Source: a virus
DNA length: 59,951 nt
Virus record (IMG/VR): IMGVR_UViG_3300035683_000005
Coordinates: 1 to 59,951 of that record
Reading direction: 5' to 3' (one strand)
Shown here: one piece after another, positions 3,717 to 53,408 of the stretch
Layout: every line of letters starts with the position of its first letter
Numbering within the stretch: position 1 is the first letter of the stretch
Made by a program: the position numbers and the translations under genes
The notes under the pieces: generated by a model
Databases searched by the model: none
Told to the model about the DNA's origin: nothing
The model's input: only the letters and a program-made list of their open reading frames with translations

Positions 3717-3957
3717 CGGACTCTCCTTTTCGGCGGTTTAATCCATCACGAAAACCCGTAAGTGCCCTTGCCACAACAAGTTACGTAAATTATATAAGTA
3801 GTATAAAGGTATAAAGGGGGTACAGTGGTACTGTTGTTCTGTTGGAGTTGCCCCCTTGAGTACCCTTTGCACCGGCCCCAAACCCCCCCTTATACTTCAT
3901 AACCTTGTAACCCCTTGTAGCGTGGGGGTTTAACCCCGTATGGCACCCCTATACCCG
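3717..3957. other. AT-rich, repeat-bearing intergenic region. Candidate replication origin and/or internal promoter.
   Basis: Local AT-rich tract ttacgtaaattatataagtagtataaaggtataaaggggg, including the direct repeat GTATAAAG x2. Repeated CCTTGTA and CCCCTT motifs. It lies directly downstream of the primase-helicase gene. Confidence 0.4.
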
Positions 3958-6381
3958 TTATACAGGCACGAAAAACGCTTGCTGAGTCGTGTCGAAATCC
4001 TTCTTGAGCTGCCCCTTGTCCATCTCGACTAGTCTGCCAGTGCGTACGAAATCCTTCAGCGTCTCTTGGAGTGCTATCCGCGCCCCCAGGCGGTGCTTTC
4101 TGAATGCCGACAGGTTCGCTGCGCGGCGCTGAATGTAGACGTAAGGCACCACTCGCTTCGAGTGCATGGCCCGAGTCACTCCATACGTCTCGAGTTCCGC
4201 GAATGGCCTCGTCAGGTAATCCTGCACAATGCGCTCAAGGTCGGCCGCCTGCTTTGAATCGCCTTCACCAACATCACCTGTGGCAAACCGATTCGAGATG
4301 TTTTGCGCGTCGGCTTTCACCAACTCGATGGCCCACACCGCTTCTTCAAGGGTAACGCAAGGCGCATGGGGCCGATCCGCCGCGGCAAGCATACCACACA
4401 GCCGCAGCGCCTTCAGGTGTGCGCGGTTCCAAAGCTGGCGCACCCCGTCGTTGCTACCAGAGCGGATGTGTTCGTCGCAGTACAGGTCGAAGGCGTCTAA
4501 CGTCATCTGCGCATCCGCGGTCATGTCCACGTTGGCCCAGGCGTTGTTCGCCTGCATCTGAAGGCAGGTGGTCAGCAGTTCTGCAAAGCGGTTCACCATC
4601 CACTCGGGCGGGGCGGCAAATGCAGCGCGATTCCGGTCCGGACGTTTCCCGCGGTACTCGATGATAAGGAACCGCGGGATCAGACCATCGGCAATGTGTT
4701 GCAGTGACAGTCCACTGTAAAACGTCTCGGGGGTGCTTTCGCCAAGCAGAGTTACGGCGGGGCTTTCAACAGGTTCGGTGTTCTTCGCAGTGTCTGCGTA
4801 CGCGCTCGGTCGGAGCATGGCACCACGGCCGCTCTTCGTATACAAGTCGAGCATTACTCGTCGCATCATCCGCGTCAGTGCGTTGTCCTCGGTTTCAGTC
4901 ATGCTTTGCAGCATCAGACCGAATTCGCCAAGGATGCTTACGAAGCACCTCTGTTTGTTGACAGCGCGCAGCATACCCTGGCCGCTTGAGAACACCGCCG
5001 GGCCGATGAATTCGTCGACGAGTGGTACTTGCATGCGCACGGCTGACACCAGCCGGTCGATTCCGCTTGTTCCTCCTTCCTTGCCTACACCCGTATCCGC
5101 CAGCACGATCATGTACTGGTTCAGTCCGCTCCCGCTGATGTTGAATTGCCGTCCGACCACACCCGAACACAGTGCAATTGCGGCGGCGACGCTTATCTCA
5201 AGCACCGGGCGGTGGGCCGTGGCGTAAATATACCGTGCTACGTCGCCCACGAACCCCGGTGGCACCTGGAAACCCGTGTCTGTGGGGGGTGGTACGGGTA
5301 GGGTACCGGAAGGGTTTACAGGGGAATTTCGCGGTAGACTACTATCACCCGCCCGGTTAGCGTAGCCCACATCAGCCACACCAGGAAGCAGAGCATTACC
5401 CAGGCGAGAACCATCAGGAAGAGCACGAAAATCCAGGACAGGAGGAATCGGATGGTGGCCATTGCCGTTCGCCTCTAGGAAAGCAGGTTGTTGAGCAGGT
5501 AGAGCGCCAACCGCATGACGATCAGCAGCCACGTCAGCGCTCCCGTTAAGCACAGGAGCAGGTAAACCAGTTCGCGTCTGTTCATGGGGCGTCTCCAGTT
5601 GGCTGAAGTCGATGATGTCAGGCTGGTTGGACCGGATTTTACGCAGGCAGCGGTCAAGGTAGTCGTCGCGCAGCGCCTTATCGCGCTTCCCAAGCCGCGA
5701 CATCCGAAACAACCGCTTCACCTGTTCGTTCGAGGGTGTATAGAAGGCGAGGATAGCCAGCAATGCAAAGTCTGCTTCGCTTTGGCTAGGCCATTCGCCT
5801 TCCCACTGCCCGTTGCAGAGCCGAGTGAACTTGTCGCCGTTTGCCGCCTCGGCGGCCATCTCTACCACGTCGGCGTCTTCTGCGATGGCGTCGTACTCCA
5901 CAAGGTCCGTCTCAGCCACGCCGTTCTGCATCTCGTCCCACAGCTGCGTCAGAAGCTCCTGGCAGTCCACAATGGGCACGTCCCGTAGCGTCCGCCCCGT
6001 GCAGATCATGTACCGGGATTCTGAGTACACCTCAACACGGTCCCGCTTCACACCCTGCGGCACCGACCCCCGACATATGATGTGGACTCCTTTTCCGCTC
6101 TGTGAAAGTTCGGCGTAGGTATCGAACAACTCGTAGATTCGCGTGTGGCGCGCTACTTGATCGGGTGACTGCGGTGAATCGAGATCGATAAGCGTATACG
6201 GATCTTTCGCCGTGAGCACGAAGCCGACGTGCGGTAGACCCGTAGCCAGCGCCTCGTCATACGTTCCCCAGGTCATGGAGTTGTTGACACTGGCGCGGAA
6301 ACCGCTCCTCGGACTGATCGGTTCCTTATCGTCCCCCGCCGCTACCCACTGCTTCAGCGCACGGAGCTCGGCGGGGATCAT
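3958..6381 (-). CDS. Bifunctional primase-polymerase / helicase: PrimPol N-terminal domain, PriCT-like segment and a DUF3987/D5-like ATPase
   Basis: 807 aa. N-terminal ...HVGFVLTAKDPYTLIDLDSP. PriCT-like GDKFTRLCNGQWEGEWPSQSEADFALLAILAFYT. Walker A ADTGVGKEGGTS. Confidence 0.75.
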   Translation of the reverse strand: MIPAELRALKQWVAAGDDKEPISPRSGFRASVNNSMTWGTYDEALATGLPHVGFVLTAKDPYTLIDLDSPQSPDQVARHTRIYELFDTYAELSQSGKGVHIICRGSVPQGVKRDRVEVYSESRYMICTGRTLRDVPIVDCQELLTQLWDEMQNGVAETDLVEYDAIAEDADVVEMAAEAANGDKFTRLCNGQWEGEWPSQSEADFALLAILAFYTPSNEQVKRLFRMSRLGKRDKALRDDYLDRCLRKIRSNQPDIIDFSQLETPHEQTRTGLPAPVLNGSADVAADRHAVGALPAQQPAFLEANGNGHHPIPPVLDFRALPDGSRLGNALLPGVADVGYANRAGDSSLPRNSPVNPSGTLPVPPPTDTGFQVPPGFVGDVARYIYATAHRPVLEISVAAAIALCSGVVGRQFNISGSGLNQYMIVLADTGVGKEGGTSGIDRLVSAVRMQVPLVDEFIGPAVFSSGQGMLRAVNKQRCFVSILGEFGLMLQSMTETEDNALTRMMRRVMLDLYTKSGRGAMLRPSAYADTAKNTEPVESPAVTLLGESTPETFYSGLSLQHIADGLIPRFLIIEYRGKRPDRNRAAFAAPPEWMVNRFAELLTTCLQMQANNAWANVDMTADAQMTLDAFDLYCDEHIRSGSNDGVRQLWNRAHLKALRLCGMLAAADRPHAPCVTLEEAVWAIELVKADAQNISNRFATGDVGEGDSKQAADLERIVQDYLTRPFAELETYGVTRAMHSKRVVPYVYIQRRAANLSAFRKHRLGARIALQETLKDFVRTGRLVEMDKGQLKKDFDTTQQAFFVPV

Positions 6382-16962: not shown

Positions 16963-16991
16963 TTGACGGGGGTGCCGGGTTGCGTTATACT
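16963..16991 (+). promoter_or_regulatory. Promoter, TTGACG-N17-TATACT
   Basis: -35 at 16963-16968, -10 at 16986-16991. Confidence 0.75.
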
Positions 16992-17800: not shown

Positions 17801-17843
17801 AGGGTCAGGCATACGGCAACCGGCAAACAACCAAGGGGCACAG

Positions 17844-18347
17844 ATGGCAACCGAACAGACCGAGATCCCAGCCGCCGAAGAAGCACCGGGCGTGCGTCGC
17901 TTCGAGCGGTCGGAGCTTCAGTCCATCCAGATGGGGGTGCTGTTCCCCATCGCTGAGATGATGAAGATCCACCGCTACGCGGAACTGACGCGTGCTGCGC
18001 TGGTCGAGAAGATTTATGTCATCCAGCACCTGCACCCGAAGGCGATGGAAGCGTTGATCGAAAAACTCGCGAAAATCGAGGACAACCAGCGCCGCAGGCT
18101 TGCGGAAGACGCTCCAAAGACGGTACGGGTGGCGGCCGACGGTACTGAGGTGCCGGTGAAACCACGGGAAAAGAGCGCGGCAGACAGCCCGGTGAAGCGC
18201 GTGTGGGCCATCTGCAATTCGATGCCGAACGCTGCCCGCAAGCACATCATCACCAAGTGCATCGAGCAGGGTGTCAACCCGAACACCGCCGCCACACAGT
18301 ACGCCGCGTGGAAGCGGGACCGGGCGGCAAATGCCGTGGGTGCGTAA
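17844..18347 (+). CDS. Hypothetical protein, 167 aa, carrying the repeated C-terminal module (KRVWAICNSM...RKHIITKCIEQGVNPNTAATQYAAWKR)
   Basis: ATG preceded by caaccaaggggcacag, in the frame of ORF 17772..18347. Confidence 0.65.
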   Translation: MATEQTEIPAAEEAPGVRRFERSELQSIQMGVLFPIAEMMKIHRYAELTRAALVEKIYVIQHLHPKAMEALIEKLAKIEDNQRRRLAEDAPKTVRVAADGTEVPVKPREKSAADSPVKRVWAICNSMPNAARKHIITKCIEQGVNPNTAATQYAAWKRDRAANAVGA

Positions 18348-19038: not shown

Positions 19039-19581
19039 ATGACGCACATGGCACAAGGTGCACGCAAGCCCGGACGGGCGGGTTCCGCCCCTACCACCGA
19101 GACGACGTCGAACACGGAGCCCGCTGCGGCGACGGCCGAGAACACCCCTGCCTCCGAGACCACCGCCACCGCTCCGGTGACGGAGTCGGCCCCGACGGCC
19201 ACCGAGCCGACACCGGCCCCCGCGGCCGAACCCGCCCAGCCGGCGCCGCCGGCCGCCGCGACGAAGCCGGCCAGGGACCAGAAGAACGGGATCACGCGCC
19301 CCGCCGGGAACACCGCGACCGGTCGGGTGTGGGCCATCGCCGACGAGCTGACCACCACCAAGCGCGCTGCCGAGGGTGCCAACGGCGACGAGCGCGCGGG
19401 TCGCAAGGAGGTGATCGACGCTTTCACCGCCGAGGGCGGGAACCAGTCGACCGGCGCCACGCAGTTCGGCCGCTGGCTGCGCTACAACGGGTTCACCGAG
19501 GCGCGCGCCGGTGCTGCCCAGCCCGCCGCGGCGCAGCCCGCGCCCGCGACGGTGGAACCCGCCGAGGCGGTCGAGGCGTAG
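19039..19581 (+). CDS. Hypothetical protein, 180 aa. Ala/Thr/Pro-rich N-terminus plus the repeated module (RVWAIADEL...RKEVIDAFTAEGGNQSTGATQFGRW).
   Basis: ORF track. RBS acaaggaatgacgcac. Confidence 0.65.
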   Translation: MTHMAQGARKPGRAGSAPTTETTSNTEPAAATAENTPASETTATAPVTESAPTATEPTPAPAAEPAQPAPPAAATKPARDQKNGITRPAGNTATGRVWAIADELTTTKRAAEGANGDERAGRKEVIDAFTAEGGNQSTGATQFGRWLRYNGFTEARAGAAQPAAAQPAPATVEPAEAVEA

Positions 19582-19658: not shown

Positions 19659-20417
19659 ATGGAAGTTCTGAACAACCAGCCTCCGATGGGTACCGACCGG
19701 CACGCATTGGGGCAGCTAAAGGTTCACAGCTACTTCCCGACGATCCAGGGCGAAGGTATCTTCGCGGGACAAGCTGCGTTCTTCATTCGGCTGATGGGCT
19801 GCAATCTGCAATGCCCAGGATGCGACACCGAGTACACCACGGACGCTCCGCTCTTGCTGTATCCCCGCGCCGTTGTTGAGCTCCTCGAAACGGCCGGTCG
19901 CCACTACGGCGACTTGGTCGTCATCACCGGCGGCGAACCCTTCCGTCAGAACATCACGCCGGCGGTTCTGGAACTCGTGGAACACGGCTACCACGTTCAA
20001 ATCGAAACCAACGGCACGCTCTACCTCGAGAACTTTCCGAAGAGCGAGGAAGTCACGATCGTCTGCAGCCCAAAAACCGCACGGATTAACCCCGTTTTGG
20101 CCGCCCGTGTGGACGCTTTCAAATACGTGATTCAGGCAGGCCACGTTGCGGACGATGGTCTTCCGACGGACGCGCTCTACAACCTCGCCGGCATTGGGCG
20201 TGATCCCGTACGTACGGGTCGCATTGCACGTCGGGTTGCACGGCCGCCGGACGAGTGGGAGGGTCCTGTCTACGTTCAACCGATGGATGAGAAGGACGAT
20301 GTAAAGAACCTGAACAACTTGCGGGAGGCGGCGCGTACCGTGATGAACGGTAGCCCGCGCGACGAGCTGCTCTACGTCCTTGGTACGCAGATGCACAAGG
20401 ACATCGGGCTGCCCTGA
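19659..20417 (+). CDS. queE: 7-carboxy-7-deazaguanine synthase (radical SAM QueE)
   Basis: TIQGEGIFAGQAAFFIRLMGCNLQCPGCDTEY is the QueE CxxxCxxC radical-SAM signature. Internal ATG of ORF 18987..20417. Confidence 0.85.
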   Translation: MEVLNNQPPMGTDRHALGQLKVHSYFPTIQGEGIFAGQAAFFIRLMGCNLQCPGCDTEYTTDAPLLLYPRAVVELLETAGRHYGDLVVITGGEPFRQNITPAVLELVEHGYHVQIETNGTLYLENFPKSEEVTIVCSPKTARINPVLAARVDAFKYVIQAGHVADDGLPTDALYNLAGIGRDPVRTGRIARRVARPPDEWEGPVYVQPMDEKDDVKNLNNLREAARTVMNGSPRDELLYVLGTQMHKDIGLP

Positions 20418-20623
20418 TGCTGGACCTCAGCATTAAGCAGCTTGTTACCGTTCGGAATTACATCGTCGAAGGCATAAACGCTGTGAAGCCTTGGACGGAG
20501 TTGCCGGCGGAGCACCAGATGGGGTCGCCCGAGCGGCTCGCCTACCTGGAGGAGTTGTTGTCTCAGGTTGATGAAGAACTTGAACTAAAAAGGGCACACG
20601 CATGTCAAGCGGAACAATCCTAA
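20417..20623 (+). CDS. Hypothetical protein, 68 aa, inside the deazaguanine cluster
   Basis: ORF track. TGATG coupling to queE. Confidence 0.5.
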   Translation: MLDLSIKQLVTVRNYIVEGINAVKPWTELPAEHQMGSPERLAYLEELLSQVDEELELKRAHACQAEQS

Positions 20624-21486
20624 TTCTGTCCGGCGGGCAGGATTCGACGACGGTGCTGTTCTACGCTCGTCAGCAATACTCGGACAGCCCCGTTCACGCC
20701 ATCACCTTCGACTACGGACAACGCCACTCACGCGAGATCGACGCCGCCAGGATCGTTGCGCGGTTGGCTGGAGTGGCGTCGCACGAGGTTCTCGAACTCC
20801 CCCTCGACATCCTCAAGGGCACATCGCCGCTGATCTCGCAAGAACCTCTCGAGCAGTACGCTGACCACAGATCGCTCCCAGGCGGTCTAGAGAAGACGTT
20901 CGTGCCCATGCGGAACCAGCTTTTCCTCACGGTCGCCTTCAACCGCGCGGTGTGTCTCGGCGCACGACGCATCCTGATCGGCGTTTCGCAGGAGGACTAC
21001 GGCGGCTATCCGGACTGCCGTAGGGAGTTCGTCAAGTGGGCCGAGCGGGCTTCAAACATCGGTCTCGGTCTCACACAGCTCAGCACTCCCGCCCAAGGTT
21101 ACATCGAGGTGGAGACACCGCTCATGTCGCTCAGCAAGGCGGAATCGGTGGAGCTTGCGCTCAAGCTACCTGGGTGCTACGAGGCACTCGCGTTCAGTCA
21201 CACGAGCTACGACGGCGAGTACCCACCGCTCGGCAAGGACCACGCGACGCTGTTGAGGGCTAAGGGCTTCGAGGAGGCGAACGTCCCCGATCCACTTATC
21301 CTGCGTGCGGTCTACGAAAACCGCATGCAGCTGCCGAACAGCCCTACCTATAGGCAGAACCCGGACATCGCCGACTTCTACGGGCGTGTCGCCGAAGCGG
21401 TGGACAGAGAGCGGGCGTATCGGCGCCGGGAAGCGGAACAAGGGCAGTTTCCCGCCTACGAGAAGCGCGGCAGGGAGGGTGTCTGA
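20602..21486 (+). CDS. queC: QueC-like 7-cyano-7-deazaguanine synthase homolog. Atypical: the Zn-binding cysteines are absent and there is a C-terminal extension of about 60 aa.
   Basis: LSGGQDSTT, FVPMRN and GGYPDCR motifs are present. The region that aligns with the canonical TCYxG...CGxCxxC reads SHTSYDGEYPPLGKDHATLL. Confidence 0.8.
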   Translation: MSSGTILILSGGQDSTTVLFYARQQYSDSPVHAITFDYGQRHSREIDAARIVARLAGVASHEVLELPLDILKGTSPLISQEPLEQYADHRSLPGGLEKTFVPMRNQLFLTVAFNRAVCLGARRILIGVSQEDYGGYPDCRREFVKWAERASNIGLGLTQLSTPAQGYIEVETPLMSLSKAESVELALKLPGCYEALAFSHTSYDGEYPPLGKDHATLLRAKGFEEANVPDPLILRAVYENRMQLPNSPTYRQNPDIADFYGRVAEAVDRERAYRRREAEQGQFPAYEKRGREGV

Positions 21487-21983
21487 TGTATACAGTCGAG
21501 CGGTACCACGACATTAGTGCCGGCCACCGCGTCGTCGGCGGGGGCAAGTGCGAGAACCTGCACGGCCACAACTACCGGATCTACTTCACTGTCGCGCCAG
21601 AGTCGCGCGGTGTGGTTGAAGTTGTGCGTGACGATGGTCGCTCACACGAGAGTATCTACCATCCGCCGAAGAGACAGCTCGACGACCGGGGCATGGTGAT
21701 CGACTTCGGCGTTGTGAAGACGACACTGTGTGACTGGCTCGAAGAGGTATGGGACCACAAGATGCTGCTGTGGGAGGAAGACCCGATGTGCTTCGCCATC
21801 CACGCGGTGGCTCCCGAGGCGGTTGTCGAGGTCGCATTCAACCCCACCGCGGAGAACATGGCACGCTACCTCGTCGAAGTGGTCGGCCCTCTGCGCCTGA
21901 AGGGGACAGGGGTTCGGCTTGTCAGGGTGCGGGTGGAGGAGACCCGCAAATGCTCTGCAACCTTCGCCCTGCCGGGGTACTGA
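21486..21983 (+). CDS. queD: 6-carboxytetrahydropterin synthase (QueD / PTPS family)
   Basis: KCENLHGHNY is the CxxxHGH motif. 165 aa. TGATG coupling on both sides. Confidence 0.85.
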   Translation: MYTVERYHDISAGHRVVGGGKCENLHGHNYRIYFTVAPESRGVVEVVRDDGRSHESIYHPPKRQLDDRGMVIDFGVVKTTLCDWLEEVWDHKMLLWEEDPMCFAIHAVAPEAVVEVAFNPTAENMARYLVEVVGPLRLKGTGVRLVRVRVEETRKCSATFALPGY

Positions 21984-22888
21984 TGGAGAAAACGAAGCTC
22001 ACGCATGGTGAGGTTGGCGGCCTCGTCGGTGATCTACTACAGAAGTTCGGTGCACTGAATCTGAGGGGTCCGGGTGTCTCAGTGTATGCCGTTCCCCGCG
22101 GCGGGGTGCCCGTGGCGTACCTGCTTGCCGGGCGCGCCCCGGGACTCCGCGTCGTCGACGATCCGATGATCGCCCATGTATTCGTCGACGACATCATCGA
22201 CTCCGGCCGGACACGCGATCGCTACCAGACAACGTATCAGAAGCCGTTTCTCGCCCTCGTGGACAAGCTGGGCGATCCGGCTCACGCGCAGATGGGCTGG
22301 GTGGTGTTCCCCTGGGAACTGTGCGAGGACGGCGCGGACGAGAACATCGAAGAGAACATCGTACGGATTCTCGAGTTCATCGGCGAAGATCCGTCGAGAG
22401 AAGGACTTCATGACACTCCCAAGCGTGTTGCGGCGGCATGGCTGGAGTGGACGTCCGGGTATCGGGTTGACCCGCAAGAACTGATCCGCTGCTTTAGCGA
22501 CGGTGGTGAGGGTTACGACGAGATGGTTCTCGTGCGACAAATTCCGTTCTACAGTCATTGCGAGCACCACATGGCGCCATTCTTCGGCACCGTCGATGTG
22601 GCGTACATCCCAAACGGCAGGATCATTGGTTTATCCAAGATCCCGCGCATCGTTGAGGTGTTCGCGCGTCGCCTTCAAGTTCAGGAGCGCTTAACCGCTC
22701 AGATCGCGATGGCCCTGATGAAGGGACTTGAACCGAAGGGAGTGGCCGTTTCGATCCGTGCTCGTCACCTCTGCATGGAAAGTCGGGGTGTCCACAAGCA
22801 GGGGAGCGACACGGTCACCAACGTGCTTCTCGGTGTCTTTCGCGTGTCGCCACCCGCTCGGGCGGAGTTCATGTCGGCAATCGGCTGA
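21983..22888 (+). CDS. folE: Fusion protein: N-terminal type I phosphoribosyltransferase-like domain plus GTP cyclohydrolase I (FolE)
   Basis: N-terminus VYAVPRGGVPVAYLLA...HVFVDDIIDSGRTRDRY is the PRPP-binding loop. C-terminus FYSHCEHHMAPFFG and QVQERLTAQIA are GCH-I motifs. ATG at 21983 overlaps the queD TGA. Confidence 0.8.
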   Translation: MEKTKLTHGEVGGLVGDLLQKFGALNLRGPGVSVYAVPRGGVPVAYLLAGRAPGLRVVDDPMIAHVFVDDIIDSGRTRDRYQTTYQKPFLALVDKLGDPAHAQMGWVVFPWELCEDGADENIEENIVRILEFIGEDPSREGLHDTPKRVAAAWLEWTSGYRVDPQELIRCFSDGGEGYDEMVLVRQIPFYSHCEHHMAPFFGTVDVAYIPNGRIIGLSKIPRIVEVFARRLQVQERLTAQIAMALMKGLEPKGVAVSIRARHLCMESRGVHKQGSDTVTNVLLGVFRVSPPARAEFMSAIG

Positions 22889-22913
22889 CGGTACCCCGCC
22901 GGGGTTGGCCCCC

Positions 22914-22942
22914 TTGACAGGCAGGCCCCGGCGGGGTATACT
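22914..22942 (+). promoter_or_regulatory. Promoter, TTGACA-N17-TATACT
   Basis: -35 at 22914-22919, -10 at 22937-22942. Confidence 0.75.
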
Positions 22943-23616: not shown

Positions 23617-24549
23617 GTGAGGATCTATCTGGCCGCCATGATGCAGAATGGCTTCCATCAGGGTAGCCAGGCTTATCTGCGCCTTACGGAGCGGGAACGG
23701 GAAGTTGTGGACTCTGTGAAGTACCGCCTCGACTCTTATCACTATATCGGCAATGAGCGGATCGCTACGCGCATTCGGTCTACTGGTCTACGTATCTTCC
23801 TCGACTCGGGAGCATTCTCCGCCTACACCCAAGGCATCACCGTCGATGTTCGGCAATACTGCTCCTATATCCACGATTACAAGGATATCCTCGAGACCGT
23901 TGAGCTGGAGAACGGTACTGTTCTTCTTCTTGCATCGGTACTTGACGCGATCGGTGATCCGACAGGTACGTGGTACAATCAGAAGCGAATGGAAGACATG
24001 GGGGTCCGCGCGCTCCCCTGCTATCACTACGGGGAGCCTCCAGAAGTCCTTCAATACTACGCGGCGAATTACGAGTACATCACGATCGGTGGGATGGTTC
24101 CAATCTCCACCCCCCAGCTGAAGATTTGGCTAGATGGGGTGTGGGGCAAATACCTCACAAACCCGGACGGCACACCCAAGGTGAAGGTTCACGGCTTCGG
24201 CTTGACGTCTGTGCAGCTGATGGCGCGATATCCCTGGTTCTCTGTAGACTCCTCTTCGTGGGTGCAGTCTGGCGGTATCGGCAATATCTTTTTGCCACAA
24301 TTCGGAATGATCGCGGTATCGGAGTTTAGCCCAAACCGGAAAGAGCCCGGGAAGCACATTGACAACATGCCGGAGCCCCAGCAACAAGCTTTGCTCCGAA
24401 TTGTTGAATCAATGGGCTTTGATGTTGAACGACTGCGCAAGGAGCACCTGAGTCGCAAGGTGTTCAACATCGCCACGTATACGGGCATCATGGAAGAGGC
24501 CGTTCACCAGAACAAGCGTTTTCGCCAACTCCAACCCACGTTCTTCTGA
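23617..24549 (+). CDS. dpdA: DpdA-type DNA 7-deazaguanine transglycosylase (TGT superfamily)
   Basis: 310 aa, GTG start. IFLDSGAFSAY, YITIGGMVP and HGFGLT segments resemble phage DpdA as I recall it. Sits in a cluster with queCDE and folE. Confidence 0.75.
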   Translation: MRIYLAAMMQNGFHQGSQAYLRLTEREREVVDSVKYRLDSYHYIGNERIATRIRSTGLRIFLDSGAFSAYTQGITVDVRQYCSYIHDYKDILETVELENGTVLLLASVLDAIGDPTGTWYNQKRMEDMGVRALPCYHYGEPPEVLQYYAANYEYITIGGMVPISTPQLKIWLDGVWGKYLTNPDGTPKVKVHGFGLTSVQLMARYPWFSVDSSSWVQSGGIGNIFLPQFGMIAVSEFSPNRKEPGKHIDNMPEPQQQALLRIVESMGFDVERLRKEHLSRKVFNIATYTGIMEEAVHQNKRFRQLQPTFF

Positions 24550-24788
24550 TGACATACCGCCGATTCTTAGACGAGTGCCGCATCCGTGTCGAAGGCTTCG
24601 TGGCATGGGTAAAGTTCGTAGACGCCGAACTTGTGCGACGCAACCAACTCCGTGTGTTGTGCTGTAGTTCTTTTGAGTATCAGCTTGCCCGCGCATACAG
24701 CGAGGAGCACGGAATCACCACTGCCGACCTCGTGGCAATGGCGTCTCGGGAGCGCCGCCCCTGGCGCGAGAACCTGGAGCTGTACTGA
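24549..24788 (+). CDS. Hypothetical protein, 79 aa
   Basis: ORF track. TGATG coupling. Confidence 0.55.
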   Translation: MTYRRFLDECRIRVEGFVAWVKFVDAELVRRNQLRVLCCSSFEYQLARAYSEEHGITTADLVAMASRERRPWRENLELY

Positions 24789-25195
24789 TGCGTATTCTGT
24801 TCACGGGCGACCGCAATTACACAGACGGCACATTTGTCGCCGACACACTTGCAGAACTTGAGCGCCTTTGTGGTCAACCGTCCGAAGTTTTCATCGCCAT
24901 TGTGGGTAGGGCGCGTGGACTGGACACTCTTGCAGAGCACCATGCTACACTGCGAGGCTGGCAGATAGAACCTTACCCCGCAGATTGGGCACAGTACGGG
25001 CGAGCGGCTGGCCCGATCCGCAACCAGCAAATGCTCGATGCCCGGCCCGCCTGCTGTCTAGCATTTCACGACAATTTCGAATCCTCACGGGGAACGCTTG
25101 ACATGGTCAACCGCTGCCGAAAGATCGGACTACCCACCGCCCTGTATGGGCACCGGCAGCTTCTGAAGCAGTGGAATTGGGGCACCAATGCTTGA
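24788..25195 (+). CDS. SLOG-fold / DUF2493-like protein, 135 aa
   Basis: MRILFTGDRNY...ADWAQYGRAAGPIRNQQML resembles the DUF2493 pattern. Confidence 0.5.
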   Translation: MRILFTGDRNYTDGTFVADTLAELERLCGQPSEVFIAIVGRARGLDTLAEHHATLRGWQIEPYPADWAQYGRAAGPIRNQQMLDARPACCLAFHDNFESSRGTLDMVNRCRKIGLPTALYGHRQLLKQWNWGTNA

Positions 25196-31190: not shown

Positions 31191-31219
31191 TTGACAGGTA
31201 ACCGGCTGGGTACTATATT
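31191..31219 (+). promoter_or_regulatory. Promoter, TTGACA-N17-TATATT
   Basis: -35 at 31191-31196, -10 at 31214-31219. Confidence 0.75.
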
Positions 31220-53379: not shown

Positions 53380-53408
53380 AATATACGCCACCCGTACCCT
53401 ATTGTCAA
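53380..53408 (-). promoter_or_regulatory. Promoter, TTGACA-N17-TATATT, minus strand, internal to the late block
   Basis: The -35 is the reverse complement of 53403-53408 and the -10 of 53380-53385. Confidence 0.7.

Follow-up and report, generated by a model that had tools for sequence, protein, structure and literature searches.

We analysed a virus-derived stretch of 59,951 nucleotides (IMG/VR record IMGVR_UViG_3300035683_000005, positions 1 to 59,951), hereafter called the window. At 21983..22888 (stop codon included) it carries a gene for a 301-amino-acid (aa) protein in which a phosphoribosyltransferase (PRT)-like domain is joined to GTP cyclohydrolase I (FolE). Features in the window are on the plus strand unless stated otherwise. 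We concluded that this PRT-FolE protein unites known kinds, a domain of the xanthine-guanine phosphoribosyltransferase (XGPRT) lineage and FolE, in a widespread and apparently undescribed combination. Our preferred reading, to which we assign a rough probability of 0.45, is that the N-terminal domain (N-domain) is a 6-oxopurine PRT that would return guanine, including guanine released from DNA by the transglycosylase DpdA, to the GTP pool on which FolE draws.

The open reading frame (ORF), the Pfam and NCBIfam matches and an AlphaFold2 model all describe one protein. The stop codon of queD (TGA, 21981-21983) and the ATG of the fusion gene (21983-21985) share an A, giving a TGATG overlap, and the fusion gene stops at 22886-22888. 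The initial annotation had placed the start here and counted 301 aa, which agrees with the sequence and with the starts of homologues, whose consensus begins at residue 3. It had also read the first ~110 aa as foreign to FolE and as bearing type I PRT features; both strings that it quoted are present (VYAVPRGGVPVAYLLA, residues 34-49; HVFVDDIIDSGRTRDRY, residues 65-81), and a PRT fold was predicted for the region. The full-length model had a predicted local distance difference test (pLDDT) score of 94.0 and a predicted template modelling (pTM) score of 0.83, with a nine-residue linker between the domains. This short acidic linker (residues 113-121, 22319..22345) varies among relatives and, at pLDDT 82, is the lowest-scoring block of the N-terminal half. 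A mechanically called start, the ATG at 21749, was rejected because it lies inside queD in another frame and homologues begin at 21983.

The GenBank record of phage PaMx25 (JQ067084.3, locus L004, 3880-4810) presents the same region otherwise, with a 191-aa folE plus an overlapping 'hypothetical protein', PaMx25_38, in another frame. Taken at face value, that record would suit an annotation artefact in which FolE begins internally and the 110 upstream codons either go untranslated or are part of a different gene; the ATG and GTG codons found in frame at residues 93-108 of the window protein would suit it as well. However, those codons lie within conserved, predicted strands and have no Shine-Dalgarno-like sequence upstream, and the PaMx25 'hypothetical protein' is in a different frame from the true ORF, a 297-aa PRT-FolE fusion at 3917-4810. 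The frame is open and conserved at the protein level (40-50% identity in hundreds of relatives, with invariant motifs), and N-domain and FolE form a single ORF in 77 of the 80 IMG/VR loci described below. The GC content of the N-domain by codon position (0.73/0.42/0.74) is coding-like and close to that of neighbouring genes, and both other frames contain stops. We therefore consider an artefact highly improbable. An internal start yielding FolE alone as the main product, which the initial annotation had allowed for, was rejected on the single ORFs, the placement of the candidate codons within strands and the missing Shine-Dalgarno sequence; codon GC and conservation did not bear it out either.

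Residues 122-301 (22346..22885) were assigned to FolE type IA. The Pfam family GTP_cyclohydroI (PF01227) spanned residues 122-300 with E 6.9e-73 and 244 bits (cut-off 27), and the folE equivalog TIGR00063 scored 226.2 bits (cut-off 181.6). Conservation counts here and below refer to 97 full-length relatives, whose mean identity to the window protein is 44% in the N-domain and 63% in the FolE part. The zinc and catalytic residues C193, H195, H196, H262 and C264 (motifs CEHH and HLC) are invariant among them. By these signs the last 180 residues form a FolE of the usual kind that is catalytically complete and predicted to open the pathway to preQ0 (7-cyano-7-deazaguanine) by converting GTP to 7,8-dihydroneopterin triphosphate (H2NTP). 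The initial annotation had likewise called the remainder of the protein a normal GTP cyclohydrolase I.

From an AlphaFold2 model, Foldseek and profile comparison we identified the N-domain (residues 1-112, 21983..22318) as a type I PRT domain that resembles XGPRT but has no loop II. Its recognition depended on a profile and a structure model, since single-sequence searches are nearly blind to this domain: searched alone against PDB sequences it returned only noise. Sub-threshold matches to the PRT family PF00156 occurred in 12 of 21 members of the N-domain family (best E 1.6e-5), and the 'phosphoribosyl transferase' family phrog_8995 matched weakly (E 3e-5). The model of residues 1-120, built on 100 sequences, had a mean pLDDT of 95.7. 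Foldseek comparison with the PDB gave purine PRTs for all 47 best matches (template modelling score ~0.69, E down to 8e-6), and each of the 44 matches at E <= 1e-3 was a PRT. The best was Pyrococcus horikoshii 1VDM; E. coli and Yersinia XGPRT and Sulfolobus hypoxanthine-guanine-xanthine PRT (HGXPRT) and adenine PRT (APRT) were also among the matches. Among predicted viral structures (BFVD), the best match was the 'phosphoribosyl transferase' of Cellulophaga phage phiST. A profile of 21 N-domain sequences aligned with XGPRT of Yersinia and E. coli at E 5e-9 along the full length of the domain. By tblastn, gp211 of Immutovirus matched N-domains of Queuovirinae at 2e-6 and gpt at 5e-5, and so bridges the N-domain and E. 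coli Gpt. We regard the PRT fold as established by this modelling and profile evidence, with Gpt-type XGPRT as the nearest characterised lineage. The structure prediction that the initial annotation had proposed as a check thus came out in its favor. Its call of a guanine or xanthine PRTase holds for kinship, XGPRT being the closest relative; the domain is not a standard XGPRT, having no loop II, and activity cannot be assumed.

The ligand sites of the fold are largely retained. The pyrophosphate (PPi)-binding loop I, P38-R39-G40-G41 (22094..22105), is present in 97 of 97 relatives and aligns with S36-R37-G38-G39 of E. coli XGPRT. The motif for 5-phosphoribosyl 1-pyrophosphate (PRPP) extends from H65 to T77 (HVFVDDIIDSGRT, 22175..22213) and contains, in the run V66-F-V-D69-D70-I-I-D73-S-G75-R-T77, two adjacent acidic residues (D69-D70), a putative catalytic Asp (D73) and, in the 5'-phosphate loop, G75 and T77. 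D69, D70, G75 and T77 are each conserved in 97/97 relatives and D73 in 96/97, and these five residues are invariant in an alignment of phage, archaeal and E. coli PRTs. D73 aligns with D92 of E. coli XGPRT, and K95 (22265..22267; lysine in 83/97) with K115. The C-terminal signature W106-V-V-F-P-W-E112 (22298..22318) aligns with W134-IEQ-P-W-D of XGPRT; W106 is kept in 95/97 relatives, F109 in 96/97, and P110, W111 and E112 in all 97, and the motif is common to the PRTs of phiST, Brevundimonas phages, Immutovirus and Thermogladius. In the crystal structures of XGPRT, K115 is the 6-oxo ligand, W134 the purine-stacking residue and D92 the catalytic residue.

Two segments are missing in comparison with XGPRT: ~20 residues after the second core strand, corresponding to the flexible loop II, and ~10 residues of the hood. 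The short link R55-A64 (22148..22174), which joins strand 56-58 to the strand of the PRPP motif, is the site of the ~20 extra XGPRT residues, and the spacing from RGG to DD is 29-31 residues in most of 248 family members versus 51 in E. coli XGPRT. The missing loop II is the main reason why PRT activity is not to be taken for granted. We describe the N-domain, as judged from alignment and model, as a minimal member of the XGPRT lineage in which the PRPP/5'-phosphate and PPi loops, the catalytic Asp and the Lys and Trp that contact the 6-oxopurine are kept and loop II is lost.

The family-wide absence of loop II and of part of the hood could also mean that turnover was lost, and that the N-domain is a non-catalytic module whose former active site binds guanine nucleotide, PRPP or (p)ppGpp so as to adjust the activity or decamer assembly of FolE to the purine state of the host. 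The active sites of HPRT and XGPRT are known to bind (p)ppGpp (PMC6783271), which favors such a role. The pTM of 0.83 suggests fixed packing on FolE, and standalone relatives retain a copy of the first FolE helix after FPWE (see below) that could be a docking element. On the other hand, the residues of the chemistry (R39, D69, D70, D73) are nearly invariant, beyond what binding would need, and loop-bearing relatives that look competent (phiST, Brevundimonas, BUCT-ZZ01) occupy similar genomic places. Loopless free genes also occur in Immutovirus and beside a transketolase gene in a metagenome-assembled genome (MAG), where a FolE regulator makes less sense. We consider a purely regulatory N-domain quite unlikely.

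We surveyed the distribution of the architecture in several collections. A tblastn search with the N-domain alone found 34 GenBank phage records (Pseudomonas, Vibrio, Stenotrophomonas, Variovorax, Xanthomonas and Sphingomonas phages), and in every annotated record among them the match fell under a gene labelled 'GTP cyclohydrolase'. PaMx25, NP1 and VpKK5 are examples of Queuovirinae that carry the fusion, the subfamily being read from the two GenBank records inspected. Going by these sequences, PRT-FolE is the usual form in Queuovirinae-like phages and has simply gone without annotation. The initial annotation knew of no description of such a fusion in deazaguanine clusters; we also found none, and the architecture itself proved common in sequence databases. 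Its suggestion of searching phage and bacterial genomes for the architecture was rewarded in the phage records and IMG/VR loci, and among cellular genomes it yielded little: a pattern-limited scan of the genomes of 185,579 species, based on a four-sequence alignment, returned five loci, one of them a phage-sized MAG contig. Cellular occurrence of the N-domain thus seems rare, the scan patterns being narrow.

Protein collections gave far larger numbers. More than 100 full-length relatives of ~300 aa, with 52-65% identity, were found in a large protein collection, and an exhaustive profile search with the N-domain recovered 1,740 clusters (at 50% identity) with E <= 1e-3, 415 of them with E <= 1e-10. 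A word-indexed protein search with the N-domain recovered just four relatives.

We scored 80 IMG/VR loci for cluster genes by tblastn with the window proteins. FolE was detected in 78 of the 80 loci, QueE in 77, QueC in 55 and QueD in 52; a DpdA homologue was detected no more than 8 kb away in 67. Of the 13 loci lacking DpdA, five end <=1.6 kb downstream of the match. The fusion occurred in clusters with QueC (52 scored loci) and without it (25), and the base-site motifs were essentially alike in the two groups.

The best 150 cluster representatives of the 1,740 served for a survey of architectures. Within this set the N-domain was joined to short FolE, to long FolE of the E. coli type, to intein-interrupted FolE, once to FolE2 and once to a DpdA-like C-terminal half; free-standing relatives of ~145-160 aa were also present and retained a copy of the first FolE helix after FPWE. 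The single FolE2 fusion (PF02649, E 5e-59) lies in a cluster ordered QueC-x-QueD-x-QueE-[PRT-FolE2], that is, in the same cluster position as the window fusion. One lineage has a separate 156-aa PRT-like gene with a 4-nt overlap with a 206-aa folE. Many short 'standalone' relatives were rejected as independent proteins: they are contig-end fragments of the fusion, and locus L002 is a frame-split fusion. Genuine separate genes for N-domain relatives exist besides such fragments.

Several individual loci are recorded for their arrangements. Locus L001 (3760-5577) contains a 147-aa remnant of the PRT domain, an ORF with an HNH-like motif (3947-4675, identified by eye) and a complete 305-aa PRT-FolE, an arrangement that resembles the outcome of a homing-endonuclease insertion accompanied by partial duplication. 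Two PRT-FolE proteins, P0125 (583 aa) and P0162 (582 aa), have an intein-like insert of ~280 aa (by eye) beside the catalytic Cys of the FolE motif CEHH. In P0247 (264 aa) a PRT-like domain is joined to a segment that resembles the C-terminal half of DpdA from the window (blastp E 1e-8); either PRT and DpdA are truly fused here or the gene was miscalled. The QueC-less locus L033 (6990-12640) encodes QueD, QueE, PRT-FolE, two unknown genes, a group-1 glycosyltransferase and a DpdA-like gene; the product of this cluster might be a derivative of 7-carboxy-7-deazaguanine (CDG) or a glycosylated 7-deazaguanine. Standalone PRT-like genes of 146-153 aa lie between a Cas4-like exonuclease and a helicase in L098 (5085-8608) and L095 (5150-7000), and L098 has, in addition, a gene for a PF18909 dGTP diphosphohydrolase N-domain protein. 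Outside que clusters, L092 (5917-6300) and L091 (1215-2068) have loopless mini-PRTs of 127-130 aa: one adjoins a transketolase subunit gene (by eye) in a bacterial MAG, and the other adjoins a putative nucleoside 2-deoxyribosyltransferase gene (by eye) on a 3.5-kb contig assigned to Prochlorococcus.

Searches of GenBank phages with E. coli Gpt, phiST gp064 and Immutovirus gp211 revealed XGPRT-like genes in 7-deazaguanine phages of seven lineages, comprising the fused form and six free-standing lineages. The E. coli Gpt query matched two small 'phage' records at 98% over 152 aa, so its sequence is essentially correct. The PRT is a free-standing gene in Cellulophaga phages phiST, phi13:1 and phi19:2, and in phiST a ribonucleotide reductase gene lies ~1.3 kb from it. 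In the Flavobacterium immuto phages the loopless gp211 is directly 5' of folE in a QueD-QueE-...-FolE-...-DpdA cluster. Brevundimonas phages have folE followed directly by a gene for xanthine PRT (XPRT), beside deoxynucleoside monophosphate (dNMP) kinase and ribonucleotide reductase genes, with QueC/QueD/QueE 7-10 kb away. An XGPRT-like gene was present in 15 records of Campylobacter Firehammervirus, PA5oct-like jumbo phages carry gpt directly 5' of queE, and Synechococcus phage BUCT-ZZ01 has the order QueE-XGPRT-x-QueD-FolE. The remaining matches were E. coli-like gpt in tiny records, two unannotated 'Bacteriophage sp.' records and one Salmonella genome record.

These genes differ in their active-site architecture and surroundings. 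Loop II is present in phiST, Brevundimonas and BUCT-ZZ01, shortened in CP220, and absent in Immutovirus and the fused forms. The ending W[IVL][IV][FY]PW[ED] occurs in several phage PRTs but not in all, PA5oct-like gpt being without it. Searches by tblastn with the window DpdA and Immutovirus DpdA3 found no DpdA in the stretches examined near the PRTs of Brevundimonas, PA5oct-like and BUCT-ZZ01 phages. In GenBank, Campylobacter phage F379 bears the label 'purine phosphoribosyltransferase / queuosine biosynthesis protein'; therefore an annotator had seen the link between PRT and queuosine. Guanine is reported to be completely replaced in CP220, phiST and immuto_2-6A (Cui et al. 2023, PMC10516641), and all three of these 100%-replaced groups encode an XGPRT-like PRT.

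We proposed guanine recycling as the most probable function because of several bodies of evidence: XGPRT fold and homology with conservation of the ligand sites despite divergence (mean identity 44%); linkage to the GTP-consuming step, as seen in the FolE fusion, the FolE2 fusion, the 4-nt overlap and the folE-adjacent genes; distribution, with seven deazaguanine lineages, all fully G-replaced groups and DpdA in 67/80 loci; and independence from the end product, the base-site motifs being essentially alike with and without QueC. In this scheme the N-domain would convert free guanine, possibly also xanthine, and PRPP to GMP or XMP, and host GMP kinase and nucleoside-diphosphate kinase would supply GTP for FolE. 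DpdA excises one DNA guanine for each 7-deazaguanine inserted, and the N-domain would clear that guanine, so that the excised base would be recycled into the precursor of its own replacement. Free guanine can re-enter the covalent enzyme-nucleic acid intermediate of tRNA-guanine transglycosylase, and by analogy with the tRNA enzyme it would compete with the incoming base. Removal and reuse of guanine would drive the exchange and would halve the net demand for G nucleotides, and fusion to FolE would give co-expression and a fixed stoichiometry at the entry to the pathway. Recycling would therefore account for a salvage gene that is tied to deazaguanine phages and present in all fully substituted ones, and for base-site residues that do not track the end product.

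Several points weigh against this proposal. The N-domain occurs in 34 of 407 FolE-matching phage records (~8%), that is, most FolE-encoding phages are without it. It scored only 13 bits with PF00156 (cut-off 26.3, hence below threshold) and 13 bits with the NCBIfam XPRT equivalog NF006613 (cut-off 138). The catalytic flexible loop II and part of the hood are absent throughout the family, and loop deletions in HPRT strongly lower kcat. The fusion cannot channel guanine to FolE because two host kinase steps (GMP to GDP to GTP) intervene, and it therefore gains nothing by channelling. Purine PRTs are already present in hosts such as Pseudomonas and Vibrio. The PRT adjoins queE rather than folE in two lineages (PA5oct-like phages and BUCT-ZZ01), and no que genes are in view near the standalone relatives in the replication modules of L098 and L095. 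With these points counted, guanine recycling, which the initial annotation had put forward without reckoning with the loss of loop II, remains a plausible reading that gains indirect support from gene distribution.

An alternative that the initial annotation left aside is that the N-domain, together with its free relatives in phiST, CP220, Immutovirus and other phages, acts on 7-deazaguanine bases. Such an enzyme would transfer ribose 5-phosphate from PRPP onto preQ0, CDG or a related base and yield 7-deazaguanine nucleotides, which could enter DNA through the nucleotide pool by a pre-replicative route alongside or instead of DpdA. There is a precedent in the tubercidin enzyme TubE, a purine-PRT homologue in a FolE/QueD/QueE-type cluster that used CDG and PRPP in vitro, and ToyH of the toyocamycin pathway was proposed for the same step (PMC6112128). 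PF00156 genes are, moreover, signature genes of toyocamycin and tubercidin clusters (bioRxiv 2026.04.15.718813). The genomic settings described above give this alternative further weight, namely PRTs within que clusters (beside queE in PA5oct-like phages and BUCT-ZZ01), the folE-PRT pair near dNMP kinase and reductase genes in Brevundimonas phages, the reductase gene near the phiST PRT, and a PRT in all three groups with 100% replacement.

Set against this, the characterised proteins nearest to the domain in fold and profile are guanine/xanthine enzymes, and the base-site motifs are the same with or without QueC, though the bases should differ. D73 is conserved in 96/97 relatives although 7-deazapurines have no N7; in 6-oxopurine PRTs the Asp aligned with it acts on N7-H. 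DpdA, a free-base user, co-occurs in 67 of the 80 loci and would make a nucleotide route redundant; fusion favors the enzyme that begins the pathway over the one that ends it; and no dedicated kinase or reductase was found among the window genes. We consider action on 7-deazaguanine bases unlikely, and reserve a minor share of the probability for functions outside the readings considered.

The neighbouring window genes complete a 7-deazaguanine cluster. FolE, QueD, QueE, QueC and DpdA all lie within 19.7-24.5 kb in the order QueE-x-QueC-QueD-[PRT-FolE]-...-DpdA. The radical SAM gene queE is at 19686..20417 (start approximate; PF04055, PF13353), queC, which has no Gat domain, at 20602..21486 (PF06508, E 8e-49), and queD, of the PTPS family, at 21486..21983 (PF01242, E 4.5e-22), its stop overlapping the start of the fusion gene. 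A dpdA-like gene for a DNA guanine transglycosylase, the proposed source of free guanine, is at 23617..24549 (phrog_887, E 2.4e-68). A putative, near-consensus sigma-70-like promoter, TTGACA-17-TATACT (22914..22942, 11/12 matches), begins 26 nt past the folE stop and, as read from the sequence, lies at the boundary where the que operon ends and the dpdA module begins. The window contains four TTGACA-N17-TATACT sites versus 0.04 expected; other promoter-type sites are at 16963-16991, 31191-31219 and 53380-53408 on the minus strand. In the promoter after folE, the -10 box runs into the 3' arm of an inverted repeat with perfect 13-nt arms (22892-22904 / 22926-22938).

Further genes surround the cluster. 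Just after dpdA, and overlapping the start of the clamp gene, is a gene for a 135-aa SLOG-family protein (24788-25195; PF10686 YAcAr, E 1e-12; phrog_289). SLOG/LOG proteins bind or cleave nucleotides, and this one may be part of the same base and nucleotide economy. Upstream of queE, two small proteins (17838-18347 and 19039-19581) have a common C-terminal motif, RVWAI...G-N-x-T-x-ATQ...W (BLASTP E 3e-7); the second, rich in Ala, Pro and Thr, overlaps a long, GTG-started mechanical ORF that contains queE. The gap between queE and queC holds a 68-aa ORF (20417-20623) with no family match, and a 68-aa gene is likewise placed in L001 (2845-3051).

The published phage pathway consists of FolE, QueD, QueE, QueC, DpdA and tailoring enzymes, with no purine-salvage step. 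Our results make an XGPRT-lineage PRT a recurrent partner of that pathway, fused to FolE, fused once to FolE2, and free-standing in six other lineages. If guanine salvage is correct, the cycle would be closed, the excised base being rebuilt as its replacement, and removal of guanine could permit complete substitution. If instead the PRT acts on deazaguanine bases, there would be an unrecognised nucleotide-level route that would explain the 100% replacement in DpdA3 phages and go against the prevailing view that 7-deazaguanine modification of DNA always follows replication. Either way, guanine balance and full substitution in these phages become directly testable, annotations such as the shortened PaMx25 folE in GenBank are corrected, and a family of loopless mini-PRTs is defined that has at least 1,700 sequence clusters and no characterised member. 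The word 'phosphoribosyl' is absent from the main texts of Hutinet 2019 and Cui 2023 (PMC10516641), and we found no paper joining deazaguanine, phage, phosphoribosyltransferase and DpdA in a search that left out most subscription-journal papers and so is no proof.

Compared with known systems, the FolE part behaves as FolE type IA (TIGR00063, PF01227): phage residues 122-300 pass both cut-offs and keep all zinc and catalytic residues, whereas the 120-residue N-terminal domain of PRT fold lies outside the FolE models of Pfam, NCBIfam and PHROG. With the XGPRTs of E. coli and Y. pestis (PDB 1A95, 4JLS, 5XTK) the N-domain shares the type I fold, end-to-end alignment, the SRGG/PRGG PPi loop, the pattern hhhhDDxxD[ST]GxT, a Lys after strand 5, and W-x3-P-W-[DE]; it differs in being ~28 residues shorter, only ~20% identical, fused to FolE and viral. 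Among archaeal PRTs (PH0095, 1VDM; Thermogladius, L094), that of Thermogladius shares the exact motifs KWVVFPWE and DDVVDSGRT, but the archaeal proteins are loop II-bearing, free-standing cellular enzymes of 150-175 aa. The free-standing phage PRTs (phiST gp064, immuto_2-6A gp211, Brevundimonas MaInes XPRT, CP220, BUCT-ZZ01, PA5oct-like) are related to the N-domain by mutual tblastn or fold matches and by the same biological setting, and gp211 is also loopless and directly upstream of folE. They differ in being separate genes, some of them beside queE or ribonucleotide reductase genes.

Two further systems are comparable in organization. Gat-QueC, like PRT-FolE, is an accessory catalytic domain on a core preQ0 enzyme in the same phage subfamily (PMC10516641), and queC of PaMx25 encodes 466 aa. 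No description of PRT-FolE was found, whereas Gat-QueC is described; it acts at the end of the pathway, in G+ formation, and PRT-FolE stands at the entry. TubE/ToyH differs from PRT-FolE in its size of 194 aa, its place in Streptomyces secondary metabolism, its CDG substrate and its separation from FolE, and resembles it, by description, in that a purine-PRT homologue is found alongside genes for GTP cyclohydrolase I and for QueD-like and QueE-like proteins (PMC6112128).

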